From positions 5,534-69,533 of IMG/VR virus record IMGVR_UViG_2974595885_000001: DNA of 64,000 bases. One strand, given 5' to 3'. Source of the DNA: a virus. The notes under the pieces are model-generated. The model did no database searches. It had not been told where the DNA came from and was given only the letters and a program-made list of their open reading frames with translations. Made by a program: the position numbers and the translations under genes. This document shows positions 2,600-52,262 of this stretch, piece by piece. Numbering within the stretch: the stretch's first letter is position 1; each line of letters starts with the position of its first letter.

Positions 2600-2619
2600 T
2601 TCGCTTCGCTCCTGTTAGG
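2600..2619 (+). promoter_or_regulatory. Putative vRNAP early hairpin promoter 1
   Basis: TCGCTTCGCTCCTGTTAGG. The template strand carries GC-GAA-GC, and the site lies about 35 nt upstream of the first early gene. Confidence 0.65.
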
Positions 2620-2650
2620 TATCATCGCATCAACCCATAGGAGTCTACTC

Positions 2651-2905
2651 ATGCGTGCAATGTATCAAGCTGCTTCGGATGCTGTCGTATCTGTCTTCGA
2701 CACTGTGACCTCAACTGCAACTGCTGCAGAAAAAGTCCTTGGTGACGCAAACCACTATGTCACTGAAAACAGTAAGGCAAATCGTCTGACAATCACCAAC
2801 AACGCTAAAATGAGAGCTACTAAATCTCTCGCTGCTCACCGCAAAGAACTGAACGAAGACGAGGAACTCTCCCAACTCTTCGATGAGATCTCAGCGGAAT
2901 GGTAA
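2651..2905 (+). CDS. Early hypothetical protein
   Basis: ATG at 2651 after TAGGAG, in frame with track ORF 2474-2905, 84 aa. Confidence 0.75.
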   Translation: MRAMYQAASDAVVSVFDTVTSTATAAEKVLGDANHYVTENSKANRLTITNNAKMRATKSLAAHRKELNEDEELSQLFDEISAEW

Positions 2906-2911
2906 CAACCT

Positions 2912-2943
2912 GAACTCTACCCAAACACCACTGGGTAGGGTTC
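2912..2943 (+). terminator. Stem-loop after the first early gene
   Basis: GAACTCTACCCA / TGGGTAGGGTTC arms with an 8-nt loop and no U-tract. Confidence 0.4.
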
Positions 2944-2969
2944 ACACCCTTAATCAGAAAGACTGACCT

Positions 2970-3182
2970 ATGCGTAAGATCGCAGGAATTACCATCCTTT
3001 TCATCCTCTTCATCACAACAATCGTGGAGCTACTCATCATGTCCATCATCATGATCTGGAACATCTTCATCATCGGATCTGTCATGGCCATCATCGGTGG
3101 CTACAAGCTCGCTATGAGCTTCGTACCAGAGTCCAAATTCAACCAACGACTGAACCAACTCAAGGAACAGAACAATGGCTAA
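2970..3182 (+). CDS. Early small membrane protein
   Basis: 70 aa with a long hydrophobic segment. Confidence 0.7.
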   Translation: MRKIAGITILFILFITTIVELLIMSIIMIWNIFIIGSVMAIIGGYKLAMSFVPESKFNQRLNQLKEQNNG

Positions 3183-3378
3183 GACCGAACATATCTTCAT
3201 CACAGAAGGAAGAACTCTCCAAGGTGAGAGCTTCGAATTCTATACTCACGGACAAGAACTCCAACTCTACTGGGACGATGGAGAAATGTCTGTCAAAGAA
3301 CTTCAACCTTGGGAAGATCCCAAGCTGGAGGCTGAACTGTGGTCCAAGGAAATCATGGCTGCAGTTCACTTAAACTAG
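3175..3378 (+). CDS. Early hypothetical protein
   Basis: 67 aa, RBS AAGGA, overlaps the upstream stop. Confidence 0.7.
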   Translation: MAKTEHIFITEGRTLQGESFEFYTHGQELQLYWDDGEMSVKELQPWEDPKLEAELWSKEIMAAVHLN

Positions 3379-3387
3379 CGTAGCTAC

Positions 3388-3406
3388 GTCGCTTCGCTCC
3401 TTTTGG
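3388..3406 (+). promoter_or_regulatory. Putative vRNAP early hairpin promoter 2
   Basis: GTCGCTTCGCTCCTTTTGG, close to N4 P2 as I recall it (GCTCCGCTTCTTTTGG). G3405 is exactly 11 nt from the loop centre. Confidence 0.75.
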
Positions 3407-3445
3407 CAATCATGCCGTAACGCTATGAAAACTGGAGAAAACATC

Positions 3446-3853
3446 ATGGCTTTCCAACTCAACAACCGTTCGAAAACAACTCAAAACTCTGCTCGTCGCA
3501 ATGAGCGTGAACCGTCGGAATTCGATGGCATCTGGCTGAATGTCGGTGTCGAAATCGAGATCGATGGTGAGATCCACTTCGCTCGTCTGAACAAGGGTAT
3601 CGCTCTTGCAGATCTCGAAGTTGCCAAGATCTCTCCTCGCACTGTCGAGAGCAATCCTTCCTACGCTGCACAACTGTCTGAGGCCAACAAGGTCGTCAAG
3701 GCTCTGCAGAAAGGTGGCCTGCAACTCGACCATGGCGATGCTGCTCCGCTGAAGCTGGCAGTTCAGATGTATCGTACAGAAGAAGCGTCTCAGAACATGC
3801 CTGAGATCACAGATTCGGATGTGGATGCGACCGCTGCAAACATCTTCGGCTAA
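3446..3853 (+). CDS. N4 gp2-like ssDNA-binding activator of RNAPII
   Basis: WLNVG, FARLNKGIAL, LDHGD and LAVQMYR align by eye with N4 gp2 as recalled (WINIG, FISLPTGIPL, LEPGE, LQVQLRR). Early position, RBS GGAG. Confidence 0.65.
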   Translation: MAFQLNNRSKTTQNSARRNEREPSEFDGIWLNVGVEIEIDGEIHFARLNKGIALADLEVAKISPRTVESNPSYAAQLSEANKVVKALQKGGLQLDHGDAAPLKLAVQMYRTEEASQNMPEITDSDVDATAANIFG

Positions 3854-3863
3854 CTCCAACCTT

Positions 3864-3891
3864 CCCTACTCTGAGGCAACTCAGGGTAGGG
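3864..3891 (+). terminator. Stem-loop after the gp2-like gene
   Basis: CCCTACTCTGAG-GCAA-CTCAGGGTAGGG, 12-bp stem with a GNRA loop. Confidence 0.6.
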
Positions 3892-3969
3892 ATAAAAGTT
3901 CAGCAGATAGACCTCTGTGATCGTGTGACAAAAATACATCAGACTGAAACCTGACTGTTGCTATTTTGC

Positions 3970-3987
3970 CTCGCTTCGCTCGTTTCG
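3970..3987 (+). promoter_or_regulatory. Putative vRNAP early hairpin promoter 3
   Basis: CTCGCTTCGCTCGTTTCG. G3987 is 11 nt from the loop centre, upstream of the 4062 gene and RNAP1. Confidence 0.6.
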
Positions 3988-4061: not shown

Positions 4062-4400
4062 ATGAAAAATACTACCAAAAAACCCACAAAAACTATGGTG
4101 GAAACTATCCGTGAAACCATGCCTACGATTCTTCGGGTTGCTCTCCTGATTGCCTATGACAACGGGATGGTGAACCGTAACGAGTCAGAAGATGACTTCG
4201 TGGGAACCACTGCATCCATCCTTGGGGAAGTACCATTGATCGAACTGATCAAGCTCGAAGCCTTCCTCAAAACCCTAAACCCAATTCAACTGAACATCAT
4301 CGCTGCAGGAGAAGACACAGAGTCAAAAGCTCTGCTGGCTGATGCTCCAAACCCTGAGTTTGCAGATACTCTGTTCAACCGTATCTTCGAAGGAGAATAA
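4062..4400 (+). CDS. Early hypothetical protein
   Basis: 112 aa, RBS GGAG. Confidence 0.7.
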   Translation: MKNTTKKPTKTMVETIRETMPTILRVALLIAYDNGMVNRNESEDDFVGTTASILGEVPLIELIKLEAFLKTLNPIQLNIIAAGEDTESKALLADAPNPEFADTLFNRIFEGE

Positions 4401-4405
4401 GAACC

Positions 4406-5197
4406 ATGACCTCTACCAACACCAACCTGAACGAGACCCAAGCCAATCTCGAAGAACTCTTTGGCCGTCACCAACTGATGCCTACTCTTCGTGAGCAGTT
4501 TGGTCCTCTGTCTGATGATCCATTCCAAGTGGATGTGATTGCTCAGATCTATCTGCACAAACAAGCAGATGTTCCTACGATGGTAGGTCTGTTCTCTCCC
4601 AAATGGGGAACTCCACAAGAAGTCGCTCAGATGCTGTTCGAAGCTGTGGAAGATGACCTGCTGGACTTCGACATGGATACACGTCGGTTCTATCTCAAAT
4701 ATGAACTGACTCGTGATGTCGAAGACCTTCTGGATCGTTACCAGTTCCCTCTGCCTATGATCGTTGAACCACGGAAAGTGGTGAATAACCGTATGGGTAG
4801 TGGATACCTGACAGAACGTTCCAGCATTGTCCTCAACGGCTCTGATATCTTCGATGGAGAAGATGTCTGCCTTGACCACATCAACCGGGCAAACTCAGTC
4901 GCTCTCAAACTGAATCTCGATGTCATTACCTCACCACAAGGCAAATACATGAAGCCTGTGCGTAAGGATGGTGAAACATGGGAGGATTACCGAAAGCGGG
5001 TGAAGCAAGCAGACAAATTCCACGAGATCTCCGTTGAGGTGATGGAGGGTCTGCTTGTATTAGGGAATGAGTTCCACCTGACTCACAAATATGATCGTCG
5101 AGGACGGACATACTGCGTGGGATATCATGTGAACTCACAGGGTACAGACTACAACAAGGCTGTGCTCGAACTGTCAAACGAAGAGGTAATCGTATGA
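4406..5197 (+). CDS. N4-like RNA polymerase II subunit 1 (gp15-like)
   Basis: HKYDRRGRTYCVGYHVNSQGTDYNKAVLEL is the T7-type DxRGRxY motif of the N-terminal half-polymerase. Confidence 0.92.
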   Translation: MTSTNTNLNETQANLEELFGRHQLMPTLREQFGPLSDDPFQVDVIAQIYLHKQADVPTMVGLFSPKWGTPQEVAQMLFEAVEDDLLDFDMDTRRFYLKYELTRDVEDLLDRYQFPLPMIVEPRKVVNNRMGSGYLTERSSIVLNGSDIFDGEDVCLDHINRANSVALKLNLDVITSPQGKYMKPVRKDGETWEDYRKRVKQADKFHEISVEVMEGLLVLGNEFHLTHKYDRRGRTYCVGYHVNSQGTDYNKAVLELSNEEVIV

Positions 5198-6553: not shown

Positions 6554-6760
6554 ATGTCTGTGCTGATCACTCTCGGAGACGGAAACGTCTTCGGGATCGA
6601 CGACGATGACGACATGTTCATTGGTCGTGACTCTGAACCATCTTCCCGAATCTTCCTTGGGAAAGCCTCAGTGCAGAACTTCAACCGTCTCAAAGCAAAT
6701 ATGGAACGGTTGCAGATTCACATGCACCATGACCCATCAGAAAGGACTTATCATCCATGA
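6554..6760 (+). CDS. Hypothetical protein
   Basis: 68 aa, RBS AGGAGG. Confidence 0.75.
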   Translation: MSVLITLGDGNVFGIDDDDDMFIGRDSEPSSRIFLGKASVQNFNRLKANMERLQIHMHHDPSERTYHP

Positions 6761-7544: not shown

Positions 7545-7745
7545 ATGCTCAACCGTCAGAACTTCCTCTTCAAACACGAAGCTGAGAAGATCGGGACAAA
7601 ACTCCTCCAAGGAAAATACGCAACGCGAATAGGCGTCGAGAAAGATCTCGATGGCTATTGGCTCAATGTGTGGTGGCGATGCGGAATCATCGCTCCACTC
7701 ACTCTTCAAGAAACTGAACAGCTATTAGGAGAAACAAAATGCTGA
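7545..7745 (+). CDS. Hypothetical protein
   Basis: 66 aa, AGGT RBS, overlaps the RNAP2 start. Confidence 0.6.
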   Translation: MLNRQNFLFKHEAEKIGTKLLQGKYATRIGVEKDLDGYWLNVWWRCGIIAPLTLQETEQLLGETKC

Positions 7746-8935
7746 AAGTACAAGAGTTCCAAACCCTTACCGGCATGGAATACGTTAAAGCAGCCATTGC
7801 TTGCTGCCACAACAAGGCCGTTGAAAAGGAACAGTGGGACACTCGTCTGGCATATTTCAGTGGTCTCGATCTGGACGCAGAGTCCACATACAAGAACGCA
7901 TCCAACCCTGTGGGGTTGCGTGCAGCAGTTGAAGCCTACAAGAAAGCTCAACGTGGTGAGAAGTCAGGATACATGATCAGTCTGGATGCTGCATCATCCG
8001 GTCTTCAGTTCCTGTCACTGCTCGTAGAGGATCCTCTCTCATGGAAACTCTGTGGTGGTGATGAGAACATCCTTGATGCCTACGCTGAGATCTTCACCAC
8101 GATGAATTCTGACCTGTCTGTGACACGGAAGGATGTGAAACAGTCGGTGATGACTGCTCTCTATGGTTCAACTGCAACTCCGGCTGCAATCTTCGGAGAT
8201 GACCTCGAAGTCTTCTACGACACCATGGAGAAAATGGCTCCGGGTGCATGGGATCTCAACTTGGGTATCCAAGAACTCTGGGATGAGATTCCGGGCAACA
8301 CCTACGACTGGTATCTGCCAGATGGCTTCTACGCCTGCATCGAAACCAAGGACAAAGAAGCAATCAACTTCACGTTCTTGGATGAAGAGTACACCGTCAT
8401 TCAGAAGGTCAATGAACGTCCTCGGTTCCACAAGGGACTGGGACCAAACCTGATCCACTCGATTGATGGTATGGTGGTTCGTGAGATGCTCCGTCGGTGT
8501 ATGTTCGACTCTCGTGTGACTCAGCGTGTCACTGAGGCCATCATTGCAGGTGAGTATGGTGTGGACGGCAAGTCTGCAGACAAGGTGAAAGAACTCTGGA
8601 CCCTCTACAAAGAGAGTGGGTTCCTGAGTGTCCGTATCCTTGACTACCTCTACGCAGATACTCTGGGTCTGGTCGATCCTATGGTCATCGCCAATCTCAT
8701 GATGACTCTGCCAGACAAGTCGTTCGAACTGGTCACTGTGCATGACTGCTTCCGTTGTCACCCGAACTATGGTGATGACCTCCGTCGTCAGTACAACCGG
8801 ATCATGTGTGACATCAAAAACAGCAATCTGCTGCCCTTCATTGCGACTCAAGTAGCAGGGAAACCTGTGAAAGCACGGAAGATCGGTAAGATCGCTGATG
8901 AGGTGATCCTCAACGCCAACTACGCTATCTGCTAA
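7739..8935 (+). CDS. N4-like RNA polymerase II subunit 2 (gp16-like)
   Basis: Motif A SLDAASSGLQ, motif B RKDVKQSVMTALYG, motif C VHDCF. Confidence 0.93.
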   Translation: MLKVQEFQTLTGMEYVKAAIACCHNKAVEKEQWDTRLAYFSGLDLDAESTYKNASNPVGLRAAVEAYKKAQRGEKSGYMISLDAASSGLQFLSLLVEDPLSWKLCGGDENILDAYAEIFTTMNSDLSVTRKDVKQSVMTALYGSTATPAAIFGDDLEVFYDTMEKMAPGAWDLNLGIQELWDEIPGNTYDWYLPDGFYACIETKDKEAINFTFLDEEYTVIQKVNERPRFHKGLGPNLIHSIDGMVVREMLRRCMFDSRVTQRVTEAIIAGEYGVDGKSADKVKELWTLYKESGFLSVRILDYLYADTLGLVDPMVIANLMMTLPDKSFELVTVHDCFRCHPNYGDDLRRQYNRIMCDIKNSNLLPFIATQVAGKPVKARKIGKIADEVILNANYAIC

Positions 8936-42203: not shown

Positions 42204-45200
42204 TTAGTTCCAACCAGCAATCACTGCCCATGGGTGCATTTCCGGGGCTGTGAAGAACATCTCTGTACCAGTCGAGAAGTCCAGACGATCTGCACCAATG
42301 GTGAAAATGTTATCGTCCACTGGGTTACCGACATCAGGTCCAGCCATCTGCATAGTCAGAGACCGTACAGGGTTTTCCCGCATCATCCGCATTGCCACTT
42401 TTGCAGCCCGGATCTTGTATGCGAAGAACCAAGTACCACCCATCCGCTCCAACAGAGAGCGAACACGACCCGGAAGAATGCCGTAGTTGATGAAGTTGTT
42501 GTTCATCTTTGCGAGAGCCTCTTCCTTCTCAAGTCCCTGAGCAATCAGGTGGTCGTAGTAGATCGACTTGGCAACCAAATCCCCATACTGAGTAGACGTG
42601 TTCATGAACTTGTAGAACTTCGTGTCCTTCGAGATCAATGCAACACGAGCAGCCTTACGGCCACGTTCACCACCATGTTTCTCTGCAAGATCAATGAGTT
42701 GCTGTTCCCAGTCCTTGTTGTACTCGCCTTGCTCGGTGAGTCCTTCAACGAGGTTCTTGAACTGACCAGCTTCGATCATAGGAGCAATGGACATCCGGTT
42801 ACGACGTTCTTCCAGAGCAGAGATCTTCCGGTCAATGGTCACACGTTTCCGAGGATTAACTTCACGTTCCACGGAGAGATCCATGATCTGAACACCAATC
42901 TTCTCGAACTCCTGCAGTTCAGCAATCTTGTCACGAGTACCCTTCAGGATAGCCTTGATAGGAACACCTTGGTTCGCAAGCTGCCAGACGTTGGAAACTG
43001 CATTCTGGTAAGCCACCTGAACCGATTTGATGATGATGGTGGACTTCACATTGGACACAGTTTCCTCAAGAGCACGTTCACCTTGAGCCAACCAACGCAT
43101 AGCATTCTTGCCCATGAGCATCTGAGCGACCTGACGAGCACCCTTGTTCACCTCTGCAGGCATATTGTTCTGACCGGTCCAGATATCCGTCACAGACGCC
43201 TCACGATAGCCCACAGACAGGTCCACATGGTCTTTCCGTACCATGAACCCAGTATCCTCACCGAACTGCTCATCAGCGTAGTCTTTGACGTACTGAGGCA
43301 TCAGACGATAGGCTTCCCGGTGCTGAGGGTTCTTCGAGGTTTTCAGGTTCACGAATTCCTCAGAAGTATCATTGTCCCGGTTGTGCCAGAGAGAAGCCAA
43401 ATGCTCCACAGTACCTTTGTTGAACTCAACAGAGGCATTCTCTTCGAAGGTACGACCGTATTTGATACCCGACAGGGTGAAGATGTCGTTTTCCAGTTCC
43501 AGAGCGTTTTCCATGACCTCACGGTTGTGCAGGAACTCGAAACCTTCAATCGTCCCATCAGGACCGTAAACCGGTGCATAGAACTCAGTCTCATCAGCAG
43601 ACAGATCTGAGTTGTAGAAGTTCACCAATTGCTCAGTGACATCCACTTCCATTGCATCAGTCCCGAATGTGGATTGACCAGTCACCTTGTCCACACCTTT
43701 GAAGGTCTGACCAGCGTTCTGCAGAACACCTTGAGAGTAGTTCTGTTGGGCTGTGTCATTCACAAAGTAGGCCATGGTGAAACCGGTAGGTAGACCAGTC
43801 TCGATATCCTGAACCTTACGCCAGCCTTTGGCTTTCAGAGCAGCTTCACTCGCAGCCGTATCGATCTTGATCCGGGAACCACCTTTGGAAACCATAGGCT
43901 GATAACCTTTGTAGTGGTTCATCCGAGCCATACCAGAGATCTGAGTGGCCCCAGTTTCCTCTTCTTGGTTCATGTGGTTCAGCCAGTTCAGGAGACCCTG
44001 TGCAGCTTCTTCGTTGTCCATGACGTACTGTTGCAAATCTGCATCACCTCCGGCCAGTTCCAGAGCTTTCAGAGTCACATACTCATCAATGATGTCCACA
44101 CCATCGATCTCAGGGTTTTCCAGTCGAGCAATCGCAAATGCGTTACGCTGCAGGAATTTACCCGGAACACCGTTGACCATGAAGTTTGCAAGCTGGTCAG
44201 CCTTGGCTTCCACAGCAGATGCACGAGAACCATACAGAACACCAATCTGGGCCTGTGCATCGTTCATACGCTGGTTGAAGTAAGCTGCATCAGTCAGGAG
44301 ACGGACAGCATTCCCTGCACCCTCACGAGAAGCGATAGAGGCCAGATCAGTTTTGGCGATCTGAGTATTCATCGTTTGAGCCATCTCACGATCATCGGTG
44401 AAACGGTTACGCAGGATAGCAGGGATACGGTCACGAATCTGTTGACGCGCCCAAACAACCCGGAAATTCACTTCATCCAGTTTCTGGATCAAACCTTTGT
44501 TGTCATCGGTGGAACCAATAACCTCATTCACAAAGGAACGAATTGGCTGGCCGATCACAGTATCAAAGAACGGGATCCGGTTCATCTGGTGTTGTGTTGC
44601 TGCAGCCTGAAGTTCAGCCCGATCAGCATCCAGCATGTTGGTCACAGATGTGACAGCATTTGCCAGACCACGAACGATCAGGTTGGAGTTTTCCTCCATG
44701 ATCTTCTCACGTTTCCGGTCAGTGATCTCTGCAAGCTGAGACATAGCACCAGAGACAAACTCATCTGCCTTGTCAAAGGAACGGGTCAAACCATCCAGAA
44801 CACCATACTCACGGGACGTATCGACCTTGTGGAGAGACCGAGCAAGGTTATCCACCACACTCAGAAGATCACCCTCAACGTCTACTTTTTGGGTGAGTTT
44901 CCGGACAGTGTAGTCAACCGCTCCCGTAATGAAGTCAGGGAGGCTTTCAGCTTTTGCATTTTCTCCTTCCGGAGCCGGTATCTCTCCCAACGCTTCGCGG
45001 AATTGTCGTGAAGATTGAGTGAGTGAAAGAAACGCTGCCAAGGGTCCATGATCAGACTCCCTATCCATAAGCGACTGAATTTCTTGAGTTTGACGAGCAT
45101 CAGCCATGTTCAGGTTTTCCATGACATGGTTCAGGATCTTCGTCAAACCACCTTCCATCTGAGTATTCGTCGGAAGACCAGCACGCATGATGATGTAGAC

Positions 45201-48200
45201 AGCACGGAAGTTAGCCCGAGCTTCTGCACCACGCAGCAGGTTCGACTGACCCAGATCGTTGATAATCCGGTCTGCTTCATCGTGGAAATCAACCACATCC
45301 TGAGCATTCTGAGAGCGTTGGCCCCCATTCGCAGGAGTGGATTTTACGTTCATATCGTCGATCCAGTTTTTGACCATATCGATCCAGTAACCTGTTGGTT
45401 TACCAGAGAAAGGTCCAGAACCTTCGCCACCATCCTCAACAGGAGGAACAGGAGGTTGGCCCAGATACCCAGTTGCGAAAACCAACTCATCAAACATATT
45501 CGCAGGAACCCCTACGATACGTTTCATCAACTGGACCACTTTCTGAGCCAGTTTCAGGATCGGAGATTTGGACTCCAGAGCCTTACGGGTTTTCATGTTG
45601 GTCAGGCCCCAAGCCATGAACTCATTCAGAGCAGCAGCTTTCGCTTCTGGTGTTGTGTTCGTTTGGTTCCGGAGCACTGCAGCTTTGGCCTGTGGAGCGT
45701 CAATGGTGTCATCACCCATGAACTCATCCATCAGAGCTTCAAGCTGTTCCACAGCCTCATGCTTGTTCCCGTTGTAGTGATCCAGCACACGGCTCATGGT
45801 TGCAGCATGAACCAACTCATGAAGAGCAGCTTCCGGATCTTTGGTAGCCAAGAAGATCACATCGTTGTTCGGGTCATAGTTCGCATCAGCTTTCAGGATC
45901 TGAGCATCGTCAGGGAAGTTCTGGATCCGGTATTCGTTCAACTGTTCCAGAGTACCGTAGACCACACGAGTCTCAGGACGGATCATTGGAGCAATGACCT
46001 TCAGGACTGCAGGATCACCCTTCATACGCTTCATGAGAGCCTGAGCAGTGAATTCCTTCACCGGTACACGGACATCTTCCTGAACCTTCTCACCGGCCAG
46101 TTCCTTACGGATCAGTTCGTTGATTTCGGAGCGAGACAGTTCCAGACCATCTTGGGAGAAACCAACATCAGAACCACCCATCTGATCGACAGACTTGGCC
46201 AGACGTTTCATCACCCGTTTACGGGCTTTGATTGCTTCATGCCTCTGATCCAATTGTACCATCAAATCCTGCATATTCGAGATTTCGATCTCACTTTTTT
46301 CTTGAGCGATAGCAATTGCTTCGTCGAGAGCAGTTTGATCGAGATCATTCGACAGGAAACCACGGAAGTTTTCTGCAGCCATTCCAAACACATCACGTTC
46401 CCAAGTAGCAGCAACCTGTTCGTTCACGAGAGGTGCATACTCTTTGATCTTGGTGACAGGCATATCGATACCGTCAAAGATCGGGAGAGTGTCTGGCATC
46501 TTGTCAGCAACACGAGAGTAGATGAGGTTCATCATCATCGCATCACCAGTGGCGATCACAGTGAACGGGATAGCAGCCACACCCGGCAGAGACGGGAACG
46601 GAAGGTTGGATTTCTGACGGAATTCACGAGTCATCGACGAGGACAGTTCCAAGTCAGACTGGGTTTTCTCAAAACCACCAATACTTAGAGTCTGGGTATC
46701 CGACGTGAACAGAGGAGACATGGTTTCCAGTTCAGCCATGGCTTTCTCATAGTCAGCCCGTGCGATCTTGGAATAGACCGGATCACCTTTGTCGTTCTTC
46801 GGAGCGTACTCAGCCAGTTTCCGAGCCATCATGACTTGGAGATATGCAGACTGGACGTTCGTCGAGTAGACCATCAGATCGTTCAGAGTCTTGATGTCAT
46901 CACCAATCGTCTGTTGTGTGGCTTCAGCCAGAACACGACCCAGTGTTGAACCAACTTGGTTCTGGAACTGATCGATTGCAGAGTCAGGGAATTCAAAGGC
47001 ACCATCAATCCCTTGGGGCAGAGTATCCCCAAAGAGAACACGGATGTCCTGTTGGATTTCCGGGTAGCCAAAATACTCAGCATAATCAACGTTGTTCGGG
47101 ATGTTCTGGATCTTGGTGTAGAATTCCAGAAGCATGTCGTTGGCAACACCGATACCCACACCTTTCACACCAGAACCATAGTTGACCTTGGTCATCGGGT
47201 TCTTGGCAGTGTTACGGGTCATCTCGATACGACCATCGTCATGACGCTTCAGGTTACCGAATGCAGCACCAAAACGCATGGAGGCTTCCAGAGCAGCCTG
47301 TTTACCGGGCTTCTTAGCCAGAGCCTTGTAGACGTTCCGAGCATGAGTAATGGAGCGTTCAGAGACTTTCTCGTACAGGTCTTTGTTGGTTCCCTGACCG
47401 AAGAAACTGTTGATCGAACGACCAGTCTCACCGAGGAACAAACCAATACGCTGAAGGTTTCCGAACTCTTCTTGGCTGATCTCACCTTGACCGAAGTTCA
47501 CCATCATGTTGGCAGCACCGTTGGTCAGACCATCCAGTTCCACAGACAGAGAGGTGTCAAAGGTTTCACGGCCACTTTCCATGGCGAACTCTGCTTCAGC
47601 CACAGCATATACAGCAGCCAACTGTTGCATTTCTACAACACCCATGGCTTGGCCCAGATTACCTTGCAATTCACCCGTCTGAAGGTAGGATTTCAAGATT
47701 GCCTTGGCTTCACCGTAGCGAGCTTCGAATTCATCTTGGACGTTTGCCAAGATCTCAGCTTGGTTCTTCTTCTCGATCTTGAACAGGTCAGAAGCCTGAG
47801 CAACACCCAACCAGAAAGCATCCATCTGATCTTTGTCGTTCAGGTTCACAGTGGCCCAGTTCGGAGCAACCAGAGCACGGAGGATCTTGTTCGATTGAGG
47901 GTTGATACCCTGATACTGGTGACGACCAACCTTGGTCACACCAACCGAGTAATACACCGGAGTATCCCGAGTTTCTGCTTCACCGATCACTTGCAGTGCA
48001 TCAGCGTAACCCATTTCAATCGAAAGGTTTTTACCCTCGACAGACTTCCGGAGAGTTTCGTTCTGGATCTCATCAGGGTTCACCCAACCAAGCATAAATG
48101 CCAGATCATCACCCATCTGGTCAGCCACATCAGCGAGACCTTCATTCAGGTAATGAGGAGTTTCCTGCATGGCCCGGAGAGCTTTCTTCTCCGTCGCACT

Positions 48201-51200
48201 CAACCGCACCTTCGAACGGTTTTGAGTGTTTGCCACCTCTGCGAAAGGTTCACCAATTTGGAAACCCAGAGGTTTTTCGTTGAACAGAGCTTCACGAACA
48301 GTATTCGGAGTCCCCTTCACTTTCTCTTCAGCATAGCGAGCCTTGGCAGTGTCGAGAGCTTTGGTTTTGACGTAGATACCCTTGGTGGTTTGTTTCACAC
48401 CATCCACAAGAGTAGGAACGTCACGCAGTTCGATGATACCACCGTCAGCAGCGACAGTGAGCATCTCAGCAACCAGACCTTCAACAACACCGGTCAGCAT
48501 GTCGATAGGAGCGTTCTTGTTCTCACGGACATTCCACAGACGGAGTACCTGACCAGAGATTTCCTCCAGTGCATTCTGCGAAGGAACCGAACCAACCAGA
48601 TTCTCGAACTCTTCTTGAGTTGGTTTCACTTCCATCAGGCTGTCACGAACTTCATTCAGCATCGACGGAGTAGCATTGAGGATCCAGTCAGATACGACCA
48701 GACCAGCCAATTCAACCATCTCAGCGTTGTAGTTCCCAGTGGTAGGATCGATCACAGCAGTGTTCCGGTATTCACGCAACTCACTGAATTTACGACCATT
48801 CTTGTCTGTGGTTCCTTCCAGAGTATGTTGACGAGCAGACAGTTTCTTTCCACCGAAAGAGGTAGTCACATTGTCCAGACGGGCTTCCATTTTACGGACC
48901 CAACGAGGAACCATCTGACCAGCAAAACGAGCCAGATATGGGTTTGCTTTCACGTTCTGAGCAAAGTCGTCGATGTTCTGAACAGGACGATCACCATCTT
49001 GCTCCTGATATGTTGCGGAGAAAACCTCAGTAACCACCGCATCAGGAGTATCGATGTCTTCAGAAACAACCTCTTCATCAGATTGGTTGTCACGAGCAGC
49101 AACAGTCCCATCAAAGTCAGGGTTTGTTTGGTGGATCTGAGACCCCTTGGAAGCGATCACCATAGCCTCATTGTCGTTGAACAGGAGAATGGAGTCATTC
49201 CCATCACGATCACGAGCCTCTTTCAGACGCATGTTGTTCTGCATCCAGAAGTCATAGGGATCGATGTTGTTTCCGACATGTTGTGCCAGAGGATTGGCCA
49301 GTTCCACTTCAGCCTCAATGAGACGAGCAGTACCAGAACCGTCACCACGAGCGAATTCCCGTGCCAGACCTTTACGAGTGGTCAGGAACGTTTCGCCATC
49401 CCGGAATGTGGCAAAGTCAGCATTTGTGCCATGGTAGAACTTGGTGCGTTCACCAGAGGCTTCATCAACAAGGAAGTCACCATCACCTTCGATAGTGGTG
49501 GCAGCATCTTCAGAAGCCTGCAGTTCAGAGTTTTCCAGAGCATCAGCGATTTCTGCCTCCACAACCTCCGCTGCGGCGTCGGTTGCTTCGTCAGTCCGGG
49601 GAGTTTCTTCAACAGTATCAGTTGCTTGGTTTTGCTCCTCATCTGTTGACACTCCCTCGGCGGGGGCCTCGGAAGTATCCCCAGTTTCGTCGTTTGTCCG
49701 GGGAGTGGTGTCTGTTTGTTCGCCATCCGCGTAATCGATTAGACTGTCAGCAACGTCCAGAGTCTCTCCGGGTGAAACAGTCAGGTCTTCTGCCTTGGCA
49801 AGCTCAATGGGGGTGAACTTGTCGAATGAACCAAACAGATCAGGGAATGTGGCCTGAACTTGGTTATAGACCTCAACAGCAGTATTCAGGTCCGAAGCGA
49901 CACGTTCAGCAAACGCAACCGAAGAAGGATTGCTACGGTTATAGCGAACAGGTTTCGCTCCACCTTCTGCACCTGCAGGTACGAATTTAGTACCACCAAC
50001 CAAGGACTCGAAGTGAACAAGAGGGCCACGGCCATCAGAGTTATTTCGGTTAAAGCTGTCATTGAGAGCCTCCACTTTATTGCTCATGTGACGAACGAAG
50101 TTTCCAAACTCAGCCATGATTTGGGTAGCAGGAATCTCAACACCACGAGAGTTGACGATTGCTCCAGTCGGGGACTGAGCAGCAGAGAAGATGTCAGAAG
50201 CAAAGTCATTCACAGAACGAAGCGAACGACCAGCACGGTCCACATAACCATTGGCAAGGATACTGCGAGATGTATCAGCCTGTGATCCAGCAGCTTTTGT
50301 GGGTTTTCCAGCCCGTGTCAGGCTGATGTTCTCTGCTTCATTGATCTGAACGTTTGTCTCTACAGCTTTGTTCACTGTAGCAGCAATCTTGCTGGCAGAC
50401 TGAAGGATCTTCACATCTGCATCAGAGATCTGACCAACATTCTGTTCAAGAATCCGAGTAGCAGTTTCAGGATTCACTGCAGCAGGATTGGTACGAGCCA
50501 GAGCAAGAGTTTCCTCTTCCACCACAGGAGTGATGGTTTCCACAGGATCAGCAGTATTCTGGTCGATGGTATTCAGATTGGCTTCCAGTTCCTGAACAAC
50601 AGGTTGAGCCAAAACATTCATGATCCGATCTTTGGCCAAACCACTCATAGAAGCAGCAGCCTGACGGAGACGAGTCACCTGTTCAGCGAACACAGCCTTG
50701 TTCCCATCGAAGTCACGACGAGTACCCCGGAAAACAGCTTCCAGAGACTGTTCCACATCAGCAGTTACTTCTGGTTCAGCAATGACGGCAGCAGCCGCTT
50801 CATTCACAGCAGAACGAACCTCATCCCGTTCACCACGACGTTCATCCACCCGATCAGCAACAGCAGATGCAGCTTCCTGACCACGTTGGATCAGACCAGT
50901 ACGTCCCTCAGTGCCAAGGAAGGCATTACGGACAGGATCAGAGTATGTGCCTTCAGTACCGTAGAGAAGATCTGTGGCACCCTGTACGACGGCTTCTCCG
51001 GTCCCTTGGATCGTTGCAGGAGCAGAGGTAACACCAGCCATACCCAGACCACCAATGGCACCCAGAGCAGCTTGTTCACCCACTCCATCAAGGAGAGAAC
51101 CATCACGAACACCTACTTCATTCTGGACGTAGTTCCCGACCAGAGCAGAGTTTGCACCTTGTCCTGCTTCTTCAGCAGTCTGTGCAATGGCTGTACGGAG

Positions 51201-52262
51201 ACCACCTGCAACACCAGCACCACGGAAACTCCGAATTGGCATGGCTTCAAAACGAGCAGTCAGAACACCCAGAGCAATACTTGCAGGGAGAGCAGAGACG
51301 AAAGCAGTCTCACCGGTCAAACCAGCAAGTTCAACACGAGCACGGGCAGTATCACCCTCATATTCTTCCAGCAGTGCCTGATAAACCGAAGAGTTCATCA
51401 GTTCTTCTTCAGGAAGATCCAGAATGGTGGAAACCGTCTCAGAGTATGTCCCAGAGGCTTCAACAGCACCAATACCCAGAGCAGAGCCTGTGTAGTGTGC
51501 AACCTGCAGAGCACGGGGAGAGTTCGTCAGAAGAGCAGTACCTGCAACAGAAGCACCACCTGTGGCACCTGCGATGATTGCCGAAGGAATCAGGGAACCA
51601 ACACCCTCAGAGACAACCTGACCAGTCAGAGCACCATCACGGAGAGTACGTTCACCAGCGTTGTATGCGTCACGACCAACTCGACGTAGAGCAGCAGCAA
51701 AAGGATCTGCACCTTCTTCCACTTCACGTTGGAATTGAGCCTCGGAGTCCTGTGCATCCAGAACACCTTCGATAGCTGCAAAACGTTGTTTCTCAAGAAC
51801 AGTTTCGGAGAGATTTTCCTGAGAAACACCTCCCCAAATATCATTCCAAGTATCTACAGTAGCGGCAGCTTCAGACCGACCAGTAGTGTTAGGATCGCCA
51901 TCAAGCTCACCAGCAATGTATCCCGCTCCTGCACCAAGAACAGTAGTAGCTGTACGACCCAGAGCGACAGAAGCACCCACGAATGAATCAGAAATAGCTT
52001 CACCCCATGTACGTGATGCTCGATCCGACTCTGCAAGACGATTAGTTCCGTCACGAAGTCGAAACCGATTTCTTGCAACCTCGTCACCATATGCGTTCCG
52101 AATTTCGCCATAGCTCATCTCCTCAAGATCACGGAGCACCTGTTCGCGCTCAAGCAGATCATTACCGCGTGCAGAGTTTACTGCAAGAGTATCCTGCGTA
52201 TTCGTGTCGTTCAGGATACCAGCGATGATTTCATCAGATGTAAGAGGAGTGTCTTGTGCCAT
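42204..52262 (-). CDS. Virion-encapsidated RNA polymerase (vRNAP, N4 gp50-like)
   Basis: 3352 aa. Motif A ELDGLTNG, motif B RNTAKNPMTKVNYG, motif C IFDGID. No Cys noticed on reading, as expected for vRNAPs. Confidence 0.96.
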   Translation of the reverse strand: MAQDTPLTSDEIIAGILNDTNTQDTLAVNSARGNDLLEREQVLRDLEEMSYGEIRNAYGDEVARNRFRLRDGTNRLAESDRASRTWGEAISDSFVGASVALGRTATTVLGAGAGYIAGELDGDPNTTGRSEAAATVDTWNDIWGGVSQENLSETVLEKQRFAAIEGVLDAQDSEAQFQREVEEGADPFAAALRRVGRDAYNAGERTLRDGALTGQVVSEGVGSLIPSAIIAGATGGASVAGTALLTNSPRALQVAHYTGSALGIGAVEASGTYSETVSTILDLPEEELMNSSVYQALLEEYEGDTARARVELAGLTGETAFVSALPASIALGVLTARFEAMPIRSFRGAGVAGGLRTAIAQTAEEAGQGANSALVGNYVQNEVGVRDGSLLDGVGEQAALGAIGGLGMAGVTSAPATIQGTGEAVVQGATDLLYGTEGTYSDPVRNAFLGTEGRTGLIQRGQEAASAVADRVDERRGERDEVRSAVNEAAAAVIAEPEVTADVEQSLEAVFRGTRRDFDGNKAVFAEQVTRLRQAAASMSGLAKDRIMNVLAQPVVQELEANLNTIDQNTADPVETITPVVEEETLALARTNPAAVNPETATRILEQNVGQISDADVKILQSASKIAATVNKAVETNVQINEAENISLTRAGKPTKAAGSQADTSRSILANGYVDRAGRSLRSVNDFASDIFSAAQSPTGAIVNSRGVEIPATQIMAEFGNFVRHMSNKVEALNDSFNRNNSDGRGPLVHFESLVGGTKFVPAGAEGGAKPVRYNRSNPSSVAFAERVASDLNTAVEVYNQVQATFPDLFGSFDKFTPIELAKAEDLTVSPGETLDVADSLIDYADGEQTDTTPRTNDETGDTSEAPAEGVSTDEEQNQATDTVEETPRTDEATDAAAEVVEAEIADALENSELQASEDAATTIEGDGDFLVDEASGERTKFYHGTNADFATFRDGETFLTTRKGLAREFARGDGSGTARLIEAEVELANPLAQHVGNNIDPYDFWMQNNMRLKEARDRDGNDSILLFNDNEAMVIASKGSQIHQTNPDFDGTVAARDNQSDEEVVSEDIDTPDAVVTEVFSATYQEQDGDRPVQNIDDFAQNVKANPYLARFAGQMVPRWVRKMEARLDNVTTSFGGKKLSARQHTLEGTTDKNGRKFSELREYRNTAVIDPTTGNYNAEMVELAGLVVSDWILNATPSMLNEVRDSLMEVKPTQEEFENLVGSVPSQNALEEISGQVLRLWNVRENKNAPIDMLTGVVEGLVAEMLTVAADGGIIELRDVPTLVDGVKQTTKGIYVKTKALDTAKARYAEEKVKGTPNTVREALFNEKPLGFQIGEPFAEVANTQNRSKVRLSATEKKALRAMQETPHYLNEGLADVADQMGDDLAFMLGWVNPDEIQNETLRKSVEGKNLSIEMGYADALQVIGEAETRDTPVYYSVGVTKVGRHQYQGINPQSNKILRALVAPNWATVNLNDKDQMDAFWLGVAQASDLFKIEKKNQAEILANVQDEFEARYGEAKAILKSYLQTGELQGNLGQAMGVVEMQQLAAVYAVAEAEFAMESGRETFDTSLSVELDGLTNGAANMMVNFGQGEISQEEFGNLQRIGLFLGETGRSINSFFGQGTNKDLYEKVSERSITHARNVYKALAKKPGKQAALEASMRFGAAFGNLKRHDDGRIEMTRNTAKNPMTKVNYGSGVKGVGIGVANDMLLEFYTKIQNIPNNVDYAEYFGYPEIQQDIRVLFGDTLPQGIDGAFEFPDSAIDQFQNQVGSTLGRVLAEATQQTIGDDIKTLNDLMVYSTNVQSAYLQVMMARKLAEYAPKNDKGDPVYSKIARADYEKAMAELETMSPLFTSDTQTLSIGGFEKTQSDLELSSSMTREFRQKSNLPFPSLPGVAAIPFTVIATGDAMMMNLIYSRVADKMPDTLPIFDGIDMPVTKIKEYAPLVNEQVAATWERDVFGMAAENFRGFLSNDLDQTALDEAIAIAQEKSEIEISNMQDLMVQLDQRHEAIKARKRVMKRLAKSVDQMGGSDVGFSQDGLELSRSEINELIRKELAGEKVQEDVRVPVKEFTAQALMKRMKGDPAVLKVIAPMIRPETRVVYGTLEQLNEYRIQNFPDDAQILKADANYDPNNDVIFLATKDPEAALHELVHAATMSRVLDHYNGNKHEAVEQLEALMDEFMGDDTIDAPQAKAAVLRNQTNTTPEAKAAALNEFMAWGLTNMKTRKALESKSPILKLAQKVVQLMKRIVGVPANMFDELVFATGYLGQPPVPPVEDGGEGSGPFSGKPTGYWIDMVKNWIDDMNVKSTPANGGQRSQNAQDVVDFHDEADRIINDLGQSNLLRGAEARANFRAVYIIMRAGLPTNTQMEGGLTKILNHVMENLNMADARQTQEIQSLMDRESDHGPLAAFLSLTQSSRQFREALGEIPAPEGENAKAESLPDFITGAVDYTVRKLTQKVDVEGDLLSVVDNLARSLHKVDTSREYGVLDGLTRSFDKADEFVSGAMSQLAEITDRKREKIMEENSNLIVRGLANAVTSVTNMLDADRAELQAAATQHQMNRIPFFDTVIGQPIRSFVNEVIGSTDDNKGLIQKLDEVNFRVVWARQQIRDRIPAILRNRFTDDREMAQTMNTQIAKTDLASIASREGAGNAVRLLTDAAYFNQRMNDAQAQIGVLYGSRASAVEAKADQLANFMVNGVPGKFLQRNAFAIARLENPEIDGVDIIDEYVTLKALELAGGDADLQQYVMDNEEAAQGLLNWLNHMNQEEETGATQISGMARMNHYKGYQPMVSKGGSRIKIDTAASEAALKAKGWRKVQDIETGLPTGFTMAYFVNDTAQQNYSQGVLQNAGQTFKGVDKVTGQSTFGTDAMEVDVTEQLVNFYNSDLSADETEFYAPVYGPDGTIEGFEFLHNREVMENALELENDIFTLSGIKYGRTFEENASVEFNKGTVEHLASLWHNRDNDTSEEFVNLKTSKNPQHREAYRLMPQYVKDYADEQFGEDTGFMVRKDHVDLSVGYREASVTDIWTGQNNMPAEVNKGARQVAQMLMGKNAMRWLAQGERALEETVSNVKSTIIIKSVQVAYQNAVSNVWQLANQGVPIKAILKGTRDKIAELQEFEKIGVQIMDLSVEREVNPRKRVTIDRKISALEERRNRMSIAPMIEAGQFKNLVEGLTEQGEYNKDWEQQLIDLAEKHGGERGRKAARVALISKDTKFYKFMNTSTQYGDLVAKSIYYDHLIAQGLEKEEALAKMNNNFINYGILPGRVRSLLERMGGTWFFAYKIRAAKVAMRMMRENPVRSLTMQMAGPDVGNPVDDNIFTIGADRLDFSTGTEMFFTAPEMHPWAVIAGWN

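Follow-up and report, generated by a model that had tools for sequence, protein, structure and literature searches.

The window analysed here, a stretch of 64,000 nt spanning bases 5534-69533 of the 72,674-bp IMG/VR virus record IMGVR_UViG_2974595885_000001, which carries assembly-type terminal repeats, is an N4-like podovirus genome, that of a marine N4-like roseophage. It encodes the N4-like gene set, comprising a virion RNA polymerase (vRNAP), a gp2 homologue and the RNAPII subunits RNAP1 and RNAP2, and the layout of these genes places the element studied here in the early, first-injected region. This element is the 11-mer TCGCTTCGCTC, which occurs three times. We are confident that the three sites are early promoters of the vRNAP, and we favour a structure in which the stem of their template-strand hairpin would run through tandem G·A mismatches. 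The sites, their predicted transcription starts and the genes concerned are as follows, in window coordinates:

2600..2612, minus strand: putative early promoter P1, with a GCGAAGC core, tandem GA/AG and a third G/A at the outer position
2617..2618, plus strand: predicted P1 start, A2617 lying 11 nt from the loop centre, with G2618 as alternative
2651..2905, plus strand: first early gene, 84 aa, phrog_14155
3388..3400, minus strand: putative early promoter P2, just 5' of gp2, with two Watson-Crick pairs, tandem G·A and the outer pair G3388-C3400
3405..3416, plus strand: predicted P2 +1, G3405, with the inverted repeat GGCA-ATCA-TGCC
3446..3853, plus strand: N4 gp2-like protein (RNAPII cofactor homologue)
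3970..3982, minus strand: putative early promoter P3, 5' of the RNAP1-containing operon (4062-5197), with the outer pair C3970-G3982
3987..3987, plus strand: predicted P3 +1, a G
4406..5197, plus strand: N4-like RNAPII small subunit (gp15-like RNAP1)
7739..8935, plus strand: N4-like RNAPII large subunit (RNAP2)
42204..52262, minus strand: vRNAP, 3352 aa; phrog_2206, 2647 bits

The three motif sites

The sequence-only reading had placed TCGCTTCGCTC at 2601, 3389 and 3971, each 5' of an early gene, and exact copies do lie at 2601-2611, 3389-3399 and 3971-3981, all on the plus strand and all intergenic. They are located 35-75 nt upstream of plus-strand open reading frames (ORFs) that start at 2651, 3446 and 4062 and bear Shine-Dalgarno sequences. 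Throughout the 72,674-bp genome the 11-mer has three forward and no reverse exact copies; with one mismatch allowed, 5 matches were found versus 0.89 expected, and none of 100 shuffles reached 5. A generalised model (TC-N-C-NNN-G-N'-TC with T at +7 and a purine at +11) matched only the three sites on the plus strand and one intragenic site, 54073, on the minus strand, with 1.2 matches per window in shuffled sequences.

On the template strand all three sites read N-GA-GC-GAA-GC-GA-N', confirming the proposed arrangement of two Watson-Crick pairs followed by an invariant GA/AG block, and the core GC-GAA-GC is at 3/3 sites the heptamer of the d(GCGAAGC) mini-hairpin. The site-to-site variation reported for the flanking pair was also recovered: plus-strand T2600/C2612 at site 1 (the G/A opposition; template A/G), G-C at site 2 (G3388-C3400) and C-G at site 3 (C3970-G3982). 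P1 has three consecutive purine-purine oppositions, which A2599-T2613 could close. At 11 nt 3' of the loop centre all three sites have a purine (A2617, G3405, G3987), again as read earlier. If the RNA is required to start with G, opposite a template C 11 nt from the centre, G3405 and G3987 fit, and P1 offers A2617 followed by G2618. Transcripts would be expected to start at 2617/2618, 3405 and 3987, and P1 may start at G2618 instead of A2617. The expectation that an inverted-repeat search would be blind to these sites proved correct, since the repeat search lists direct repeats only, a scan for stems of at least 4 bp misses them, and DNA energy folding of both strands predicted no hairpin at the sites.

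Homology to N4-type hairpin promoters

The textbook example of DNA structure read by a polymerase is the hairpin promoter of N4. Our comparison covered early regions from twelve roseophage isolates and N4 itself. N4 has GTTGC-TTC-GCAAC-ttat-GG at position 96 and AAGAAGC-TCC-GCTTCTT-tt-GG at position 565, the latter just 5' of gp2, and in both 11 nt separate the loop centre from GG; a search of the first 4.5 kb of N4 for C-TNC-G did not recover P3. In Sanyabayvirus (AX, RD-1410Ws-07, DS-1410Ws-06), Gonggongvirus R7L and Aorunvirus (V21, DSS3phi2, EE36phi1), the same early genes are preceded by canonical N4-style plus-strand hairpins, in which C...G closes a TCC loop on a Watson-Crick stem of 5-7 bp, and three uncultured contigs also have 5-7-bp Watson-Crick hairpins at homologous places.

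Each site of the window occupies the position of such a sister-genus hairpin promoter, with the same 11-nt register to GG and homologous leaders. Ahead of gp2, RD-1410Ws-07 has AGCGCC-TCC-GGCGCT followed by TTTGGCAATGATGCC, and the window has CGTCGC-TTC-GCTCCT followed by TTTGGCAATCATGCC; loop centre and GG are 11 nt apart in each. The start boxes and leaders of sites 1 and 3 recur at promoters 1 and 3 of relatives: P1 is homologous to the first promoter of V13, DFL12phi1 and the contigs G001 and L062, with which it shares the leader, and for P3 there is a homologous TYTC-GC start box in R7L, V21 and EE36phi1. The presumed promoters of the three sister genera thus resemble those of the window in position, register, start boxes (TTTTGG, TCTC-GC) and leaders, and differ in their continuous stems and their plus-strand TCC loop.

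The N4 promoter is determined by a -11 purine, -10 G, -9 C, -8 G and C at +1; its working stem has five pairs, and an intercalating hairpin acts at the -5/-4 junction (PMC4496689). The sites of the window keep the published determinants except the continuous stem, with C at the predicted +1 of P2 and P3. They are few, lie on the coding strand at the first-injected end ahead of gp2 and the RNAPII genes, as N4 P1 and P2 lie at the left end ahead of early genes with P2 directly ahead of gp2, and they have a template G-N-A loop closed by C:G with a central purine at -11, followed by -10 G, -9 C and -8 G. The T-rich non-template spacer is likewise shared, the predicted starts of P2 and P3 lie 11 nt from the loop centre as in N4, and the N4 P1 core GCTTCGC is identical to that of the window. 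What differs is the stem, which in N4 comprises 5-7 continuous Watson-Crick pairs and here two pairs, the invariant A·G and G·A, and one outer pair; in addition, the complementary strand of the window sites can form only C/T mismatches. In function the sites would be N4-type hairpin promoters, and they form a variant, as they lack the continuous stem of the strict definition.

The encoded polymerases fit this assignment. The central domain of the window vRNAP matches N4 mini-vRNAP crystal structures (E = 3e-63); an Arg aligns with N4 R904, which contacts -8G, and N4 D901 aligns with an Arg. In this structure-based match the N-terminal recognition element of N4 vRNAP gave no alignment to the window protein. 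The vRNAP at 42204-52262 is the enzyme expected to read all three promoters. The vRNAP-type identity claimed in the sequence-only reading is thereby upheld by the encoded N4-type polymerases, by synteny and by homology to canonical hairpin promoters. Among N4-like phages, LUZ7 also has hairpin promoters, mapped by 5'-end sequencing and with G as the preferred start (PMC9163698). They differ in having Watson-Crick stems of at least 4 bp and starts 13-14 nt from the hairpin centre, and the middle promoters of LUZ7 are hairpins as well (PMC9163698).

A proposed stem continued through tandem G·A pairs

In the model that we propose, the promoter hairpin would form on the template strand and span -5 to -17. 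Its nucleus would be the GCGAAGC mini-hairpin, in which two G-C pairs carry a GAA loop with a sheared pair between its G and its A; the stem would be extended by the tandem purine-purine step A(-7)·G(-15), G(-6)·A(-16), that is 5'-GA/3'-AG, and closed by the -5:-17 pair. This would give a five-step stem and an 11-nt distance from loop centre to +1, both as in N4, and the injected vRNAP would read three such early promoters in this N4-like roseophage. The G·A pairs would be sheared and stacked. We hold this complete model, with the tandem G·A inside the helix, to be probable, on the following grounds.

The GA/AG step is bracketed by G(-8):C(-14) on the inside and the -5:-17 pair on the outside, and the latter is Watson-Crick at P2 and P3. 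A covarying pair beyond the mismatches implies that the strand stays aligned across them. The search for the motif and its covariation in related phages, called for in the sequence-only reading, was carried out and the design recurs: an alignment of 19 sites from six lineages (the window, G001, G002, phiCB2047-B, V13 and DFL12phi1/R2C) shares one plus-strand plan, in which two Watson-Crick pairs enclose a 3-nt loop and are flanked on each side by TC and then by N or N'. The uncultured contig G001 has the identical 11-mer three times and the fragment G002 four times; phiCB2047-B has TCAC-TTC-GTTC twice, V13 has TCGC-TCC-GCTC twice and TCAC-TCC-GTTC once, and DFL12phi1/R2C have TCSC-GTT-GSTC four times. 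The variant is common to at least eight related phages.

Within the alignment the closing pair is C-G in 19/19 sites, pair 2 is Watson-Crick in all 19 (GC 13, AT 3, CG 3), positions 3 and 4 are C/T and T/C in every site (template A·G, G·A), and the outer pair 5 is Watson-Crick in 14 of the 19 (GC 8, CG 5, AT 1). T occupies +7 in 19/19 and G occupies +11 in 18/19. The covariation score was 0.313 versus 0.104 for shuffled alignments (0/500 reached it), all slid registers scored lower, and the outer pair alone gave a permutation p of ~1e-5, figures that overstate independence inasmuch as the 19 sites are related by descent. GC-to-CG switches arise separately inside each of three homologous promoter groups. 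In sister phages the mismatch positions are ordinary Watson-Crick pairs of varying sequence. The earlier proposal that the stem continues through the tandem G·A thus finds support in the covarying outer pair, in the invariance of GA/AG and in its Watson-Crick counterparts in relatives. Reading the motif as a direct repeat (TCGCT twice) was rejected, as relatives preserve the pairing pattern and not the repeat.

The ideal context for tandem GA is pyrimidine-GA-purine. In DNA the sheared stacking of tandem GA-AG mismatches is exceptionally strong, and C·T mismatches belong to the weakest (PMC8163305). Judged from the aligned sites, the stems nearly always carry the one tandem mismatch that is known to fit into a helix. 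As in the duplexes studied, it is an antiparallel 5'-GA/3'-AG step beside a G-C pair (PMC8163305); the difference is that such steps are known mainly from model oligonucleotides and repeats, and their use in a polymerase-recognition hairpin is what we propose here. The d(GCGAAGC) mini-hairpin, of which the template core of the window is an exact copy, has been linked to the N4 promoter in a review of GCGAAGC-type cores, and the mini-hairpin literature consulted differs in that it describes no promoter whose stem is extended by tandem G·A (PMC13037366).

Several observations speak against the complete model. The pyrimidine-GA-purine outer context is met only where the plus-strand outer pair is C...G, for example at P3. 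The outer pair is non-Watson-Crick in 5 of the 19 sites, including P1 of the window, three of these five being template G/A, and the shared descent of the sites tempers the statistics as stated above. In the more distant contig L063, the candidate promoter at 6703 is unpaired beyond the 2-bp core and that at 4375 has A·A replacing one G·A. The Baltimorevirus sites keep GA/AG and yet have the template loop AAC rather than GNA:

DFL12phi1 (L011), 984, 1434, 2453 and 3257, and also R2C (L010): Baltimorevirus promoters with GA/AG and a Watson-Crick outer pair

The AAC loop means that the sheared G·A loop closure needed for N4 extrusion is absent there; the GA/AG step is better conserved than the loop, and these polymerases differ in the details of recognition. 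Finally, a nearest-neighbour DNA model gave +1.4 to +2.9 kcal/mol for the proposed fold. The same model gave +0.2 kcal/mol for GCGAAGC itself, which melts at 76.5 C (PMC13037366). Because it fails for this stable hairpin, the folding energies carry no weight here.

Further G·A-type sites were found in more distant N4-like contigs, namely L062 and L053/L063 (RNAP1 39% identical), and also in L066. The last (IMGVR_UViG_3300003322_001129, a 42-kb viral contig) has one exact G-TCGCTTCGCTC-C-tctt-GG at 8342-8359 on the minus strand. In a tree of gp2 and RNAP1, V13 with its G·A stems groups with the Watson-Crick Sanyabayvirus (support 98/96), which implies that the G·A type is not monophyletic and that stem types switched at least twice. 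The first promoter of L062 is of the G·A type (G-TC-GC-TTC-GC-TC-C) and its promoters 2 and 3 build Watson-Crick steps on that core (C-AT-GC-TTC-GC-AT-G and TT-GC-TTC-GC-AA). Both stem types are apparently accepted by a single polymerase in this phage, and their coexistence means that adaptation of the vRNAP to the promoter type is not required. At the homologous promoter position RLP1 (L004:~350-400) has GGGGC-TAAC-GCCCC, with a possible GTTA tetraloop on the template, and the contig UViG_3300025632 has CTT loops (template AAG) on 5-6-bp stems (L022:1010, 2422, 2993).

The most serious competitor, to which we give a minor but real share of the probability, accepts the sites as vRNAP promoters and lets only the 7-nt GCGAAGC mini-hairpin form. 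The flanking GA would then be unpaired and conserved as single-stranded bases read by the polymerase or a single-stranded DNA-binding protein (SSB), or as unpaired stacking. All base-specific N4 contacts (-8 to -11) fall in the core, which is extraordinarily stable alone; sites without a Watson-Crick outer pair occur in P1 of the window, in G001 and in G002, and L063:6703 shows no outer pairing whatsoever. These L063 exceptions imply that the core alone may suffice and keep this explanation alive. Set against it are the 14/19 Watson-Crick outer pairs, which comprise GC, CG and AT types, and the free variation of both mismatch positions as Watson-Crick pairs in sister phages and in promoters 2 and 3 of L062, which points to a helical role and not to base-specific reading. 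The complete model with the G·A step in the helix is the one that we prefer on this evidence. A double-stranded recognition sequence of the T7 type, with no hairpin at all, would agree with the invariance of the 11-mer within the window genome and with a stem too weak for standard folding models. We consider it very unlikely in view of the compensatory changes at pair 2 (GC, AT and CG, paired in 19/19) and at pair 5, the homology of the sites to canonical inverted-repeat promoters, and the homology of the window vRNAP to the N4 enzyme, which requires a template-strand hairpin.

Equally improbable in our estimate is that the hairpins are promoters of the second polymerase, RNAPII, and not of the vRNAP, an idea suggested by the LUZ7 middle promoters, which are GC-rich hairpins like the early ones (PMC9163698). 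RNAPII cannot be the sole reader, because the sites drive gp2 and RNAP1, whose products RNAPII needs first; moreover, there are three copies only, confined to the leftmost 1.5 kb of the early region, their positions match N4 P1 and P2, and an N4-type gp2 is present. That the sites are no promoters, being instead the binding site of another protein or a chance repeat, we regard as the least probable explanation, scarcely to be entertained: the copy-number, shuffle and generalised-model counts exclude chance, and position, strand, spacing to conserved leaders and N4-type homology all fit a promoter. Sigma-70 promoters, tried as another candidate, were not enriched in the region (7 found versus 8.2 expected).

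On the complementary strand the stem would be limited to C/T and T/C mismatches, so the hairpin should be strongly strand-asymmetric. It is conceivable, if rather doubtful, that the tandem G·A is a selected device which makes the hairpin stable on the purine-rich template and not on its pyrimidine complement. Opening of the promoter might then not require SSB to melt a competing non-template hairpin or, alternatively, could occur at a superhelical threshold other than that of N4, and the sheared step may in addition offer the polymerase an unusual groove to read.

Neighbouring sequences and implications

An inverted repeat, GGCA-ATCA-TGCC, begins exactly at the predicted +1 of P2. It covaries in relatives (GGGA...TCCC, GGCG...TGCC and GAGGA...TCCTC in L007, L006, L012, L013, L024 and L062), and N4 P1 and P2 have an inverted repeat at +1 too (L016:107-123 and 576-596). 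From its conservation it looks like a 5'-terminal RNA hairpin or a second DNA hairpin. Two further hairpins follow the first early gene (2917-2938, 7-9 pairs) and gp2 (3864-3891, 12 pairs and a GCAA loop) directly, with the common 3' arm GGGTAGGG; neither is followed by a T run, and both are candidates for early (vRNAP) terminators ahead of the next promoter.

The relatives of the gp2-like protein are all N4-like roseophages of Rhodovirinae (33-40% identity). A single gp2 protein query retrieved no related loci, and alignment queries succeeded. At the nucleotide level, the only similarity that a search found for the early region is a 123-nt stretch just 5' of P1 (2441-2563), 75% identical to noncoding DNA near the end of the DFL12phi1 record; it is rich in G/C runs and may lie near the physical left end or terminal repeat. 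About 400 nt of noncoding DNA at 1740-2150 separate the right-arm genes from the early region. This stretch contains a 23-nt unit twice, 81 nt apart (1943-1965 and 2024-2046), two GAGGAGGA boxes, and at 2080-2086 on the plus strand a GCGAAGC mini-hairpin motif inside a longer imperfect inverted repeat. Rfam and tRNA searches of the early region, including 1740-2150, gave no match.

A literature search found no promoter description for roseophages or Rhodovirinae, no G·A mismatches in vRNAP promoters and no mention of the 11-mer, and a hairpin promoter variant with a G·A stem has apparently not been described before. Our data suggest that a set of marine relatives of N4 builds promoter structure partly from non-Watson-Crick pairs. 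If true, this would be a natural case of promoters that make conserved use of tandem G·A pairs, and it would explain why inverted-repeat searches miss the early promoters of many N4-like roseophages. It would also provide a clean system for studying how stem geometry and strand asymmetry affect extrusion and polymerase recognition, as there are cultured phages with the G·A type (DFL12phi1 and R2C on Dinoroseobacter shibae, V13 on Ruegeria pomeroyi, phiCB2047-B on Sulfitobacter) and the same promoter occurs naturally in Watson-Crick and G·A versions open to comparison. Should the strand asymmetry prove to be the selected property, these sites would constitute a distinct class of structure-encoded promoter across marine N4-like phages.

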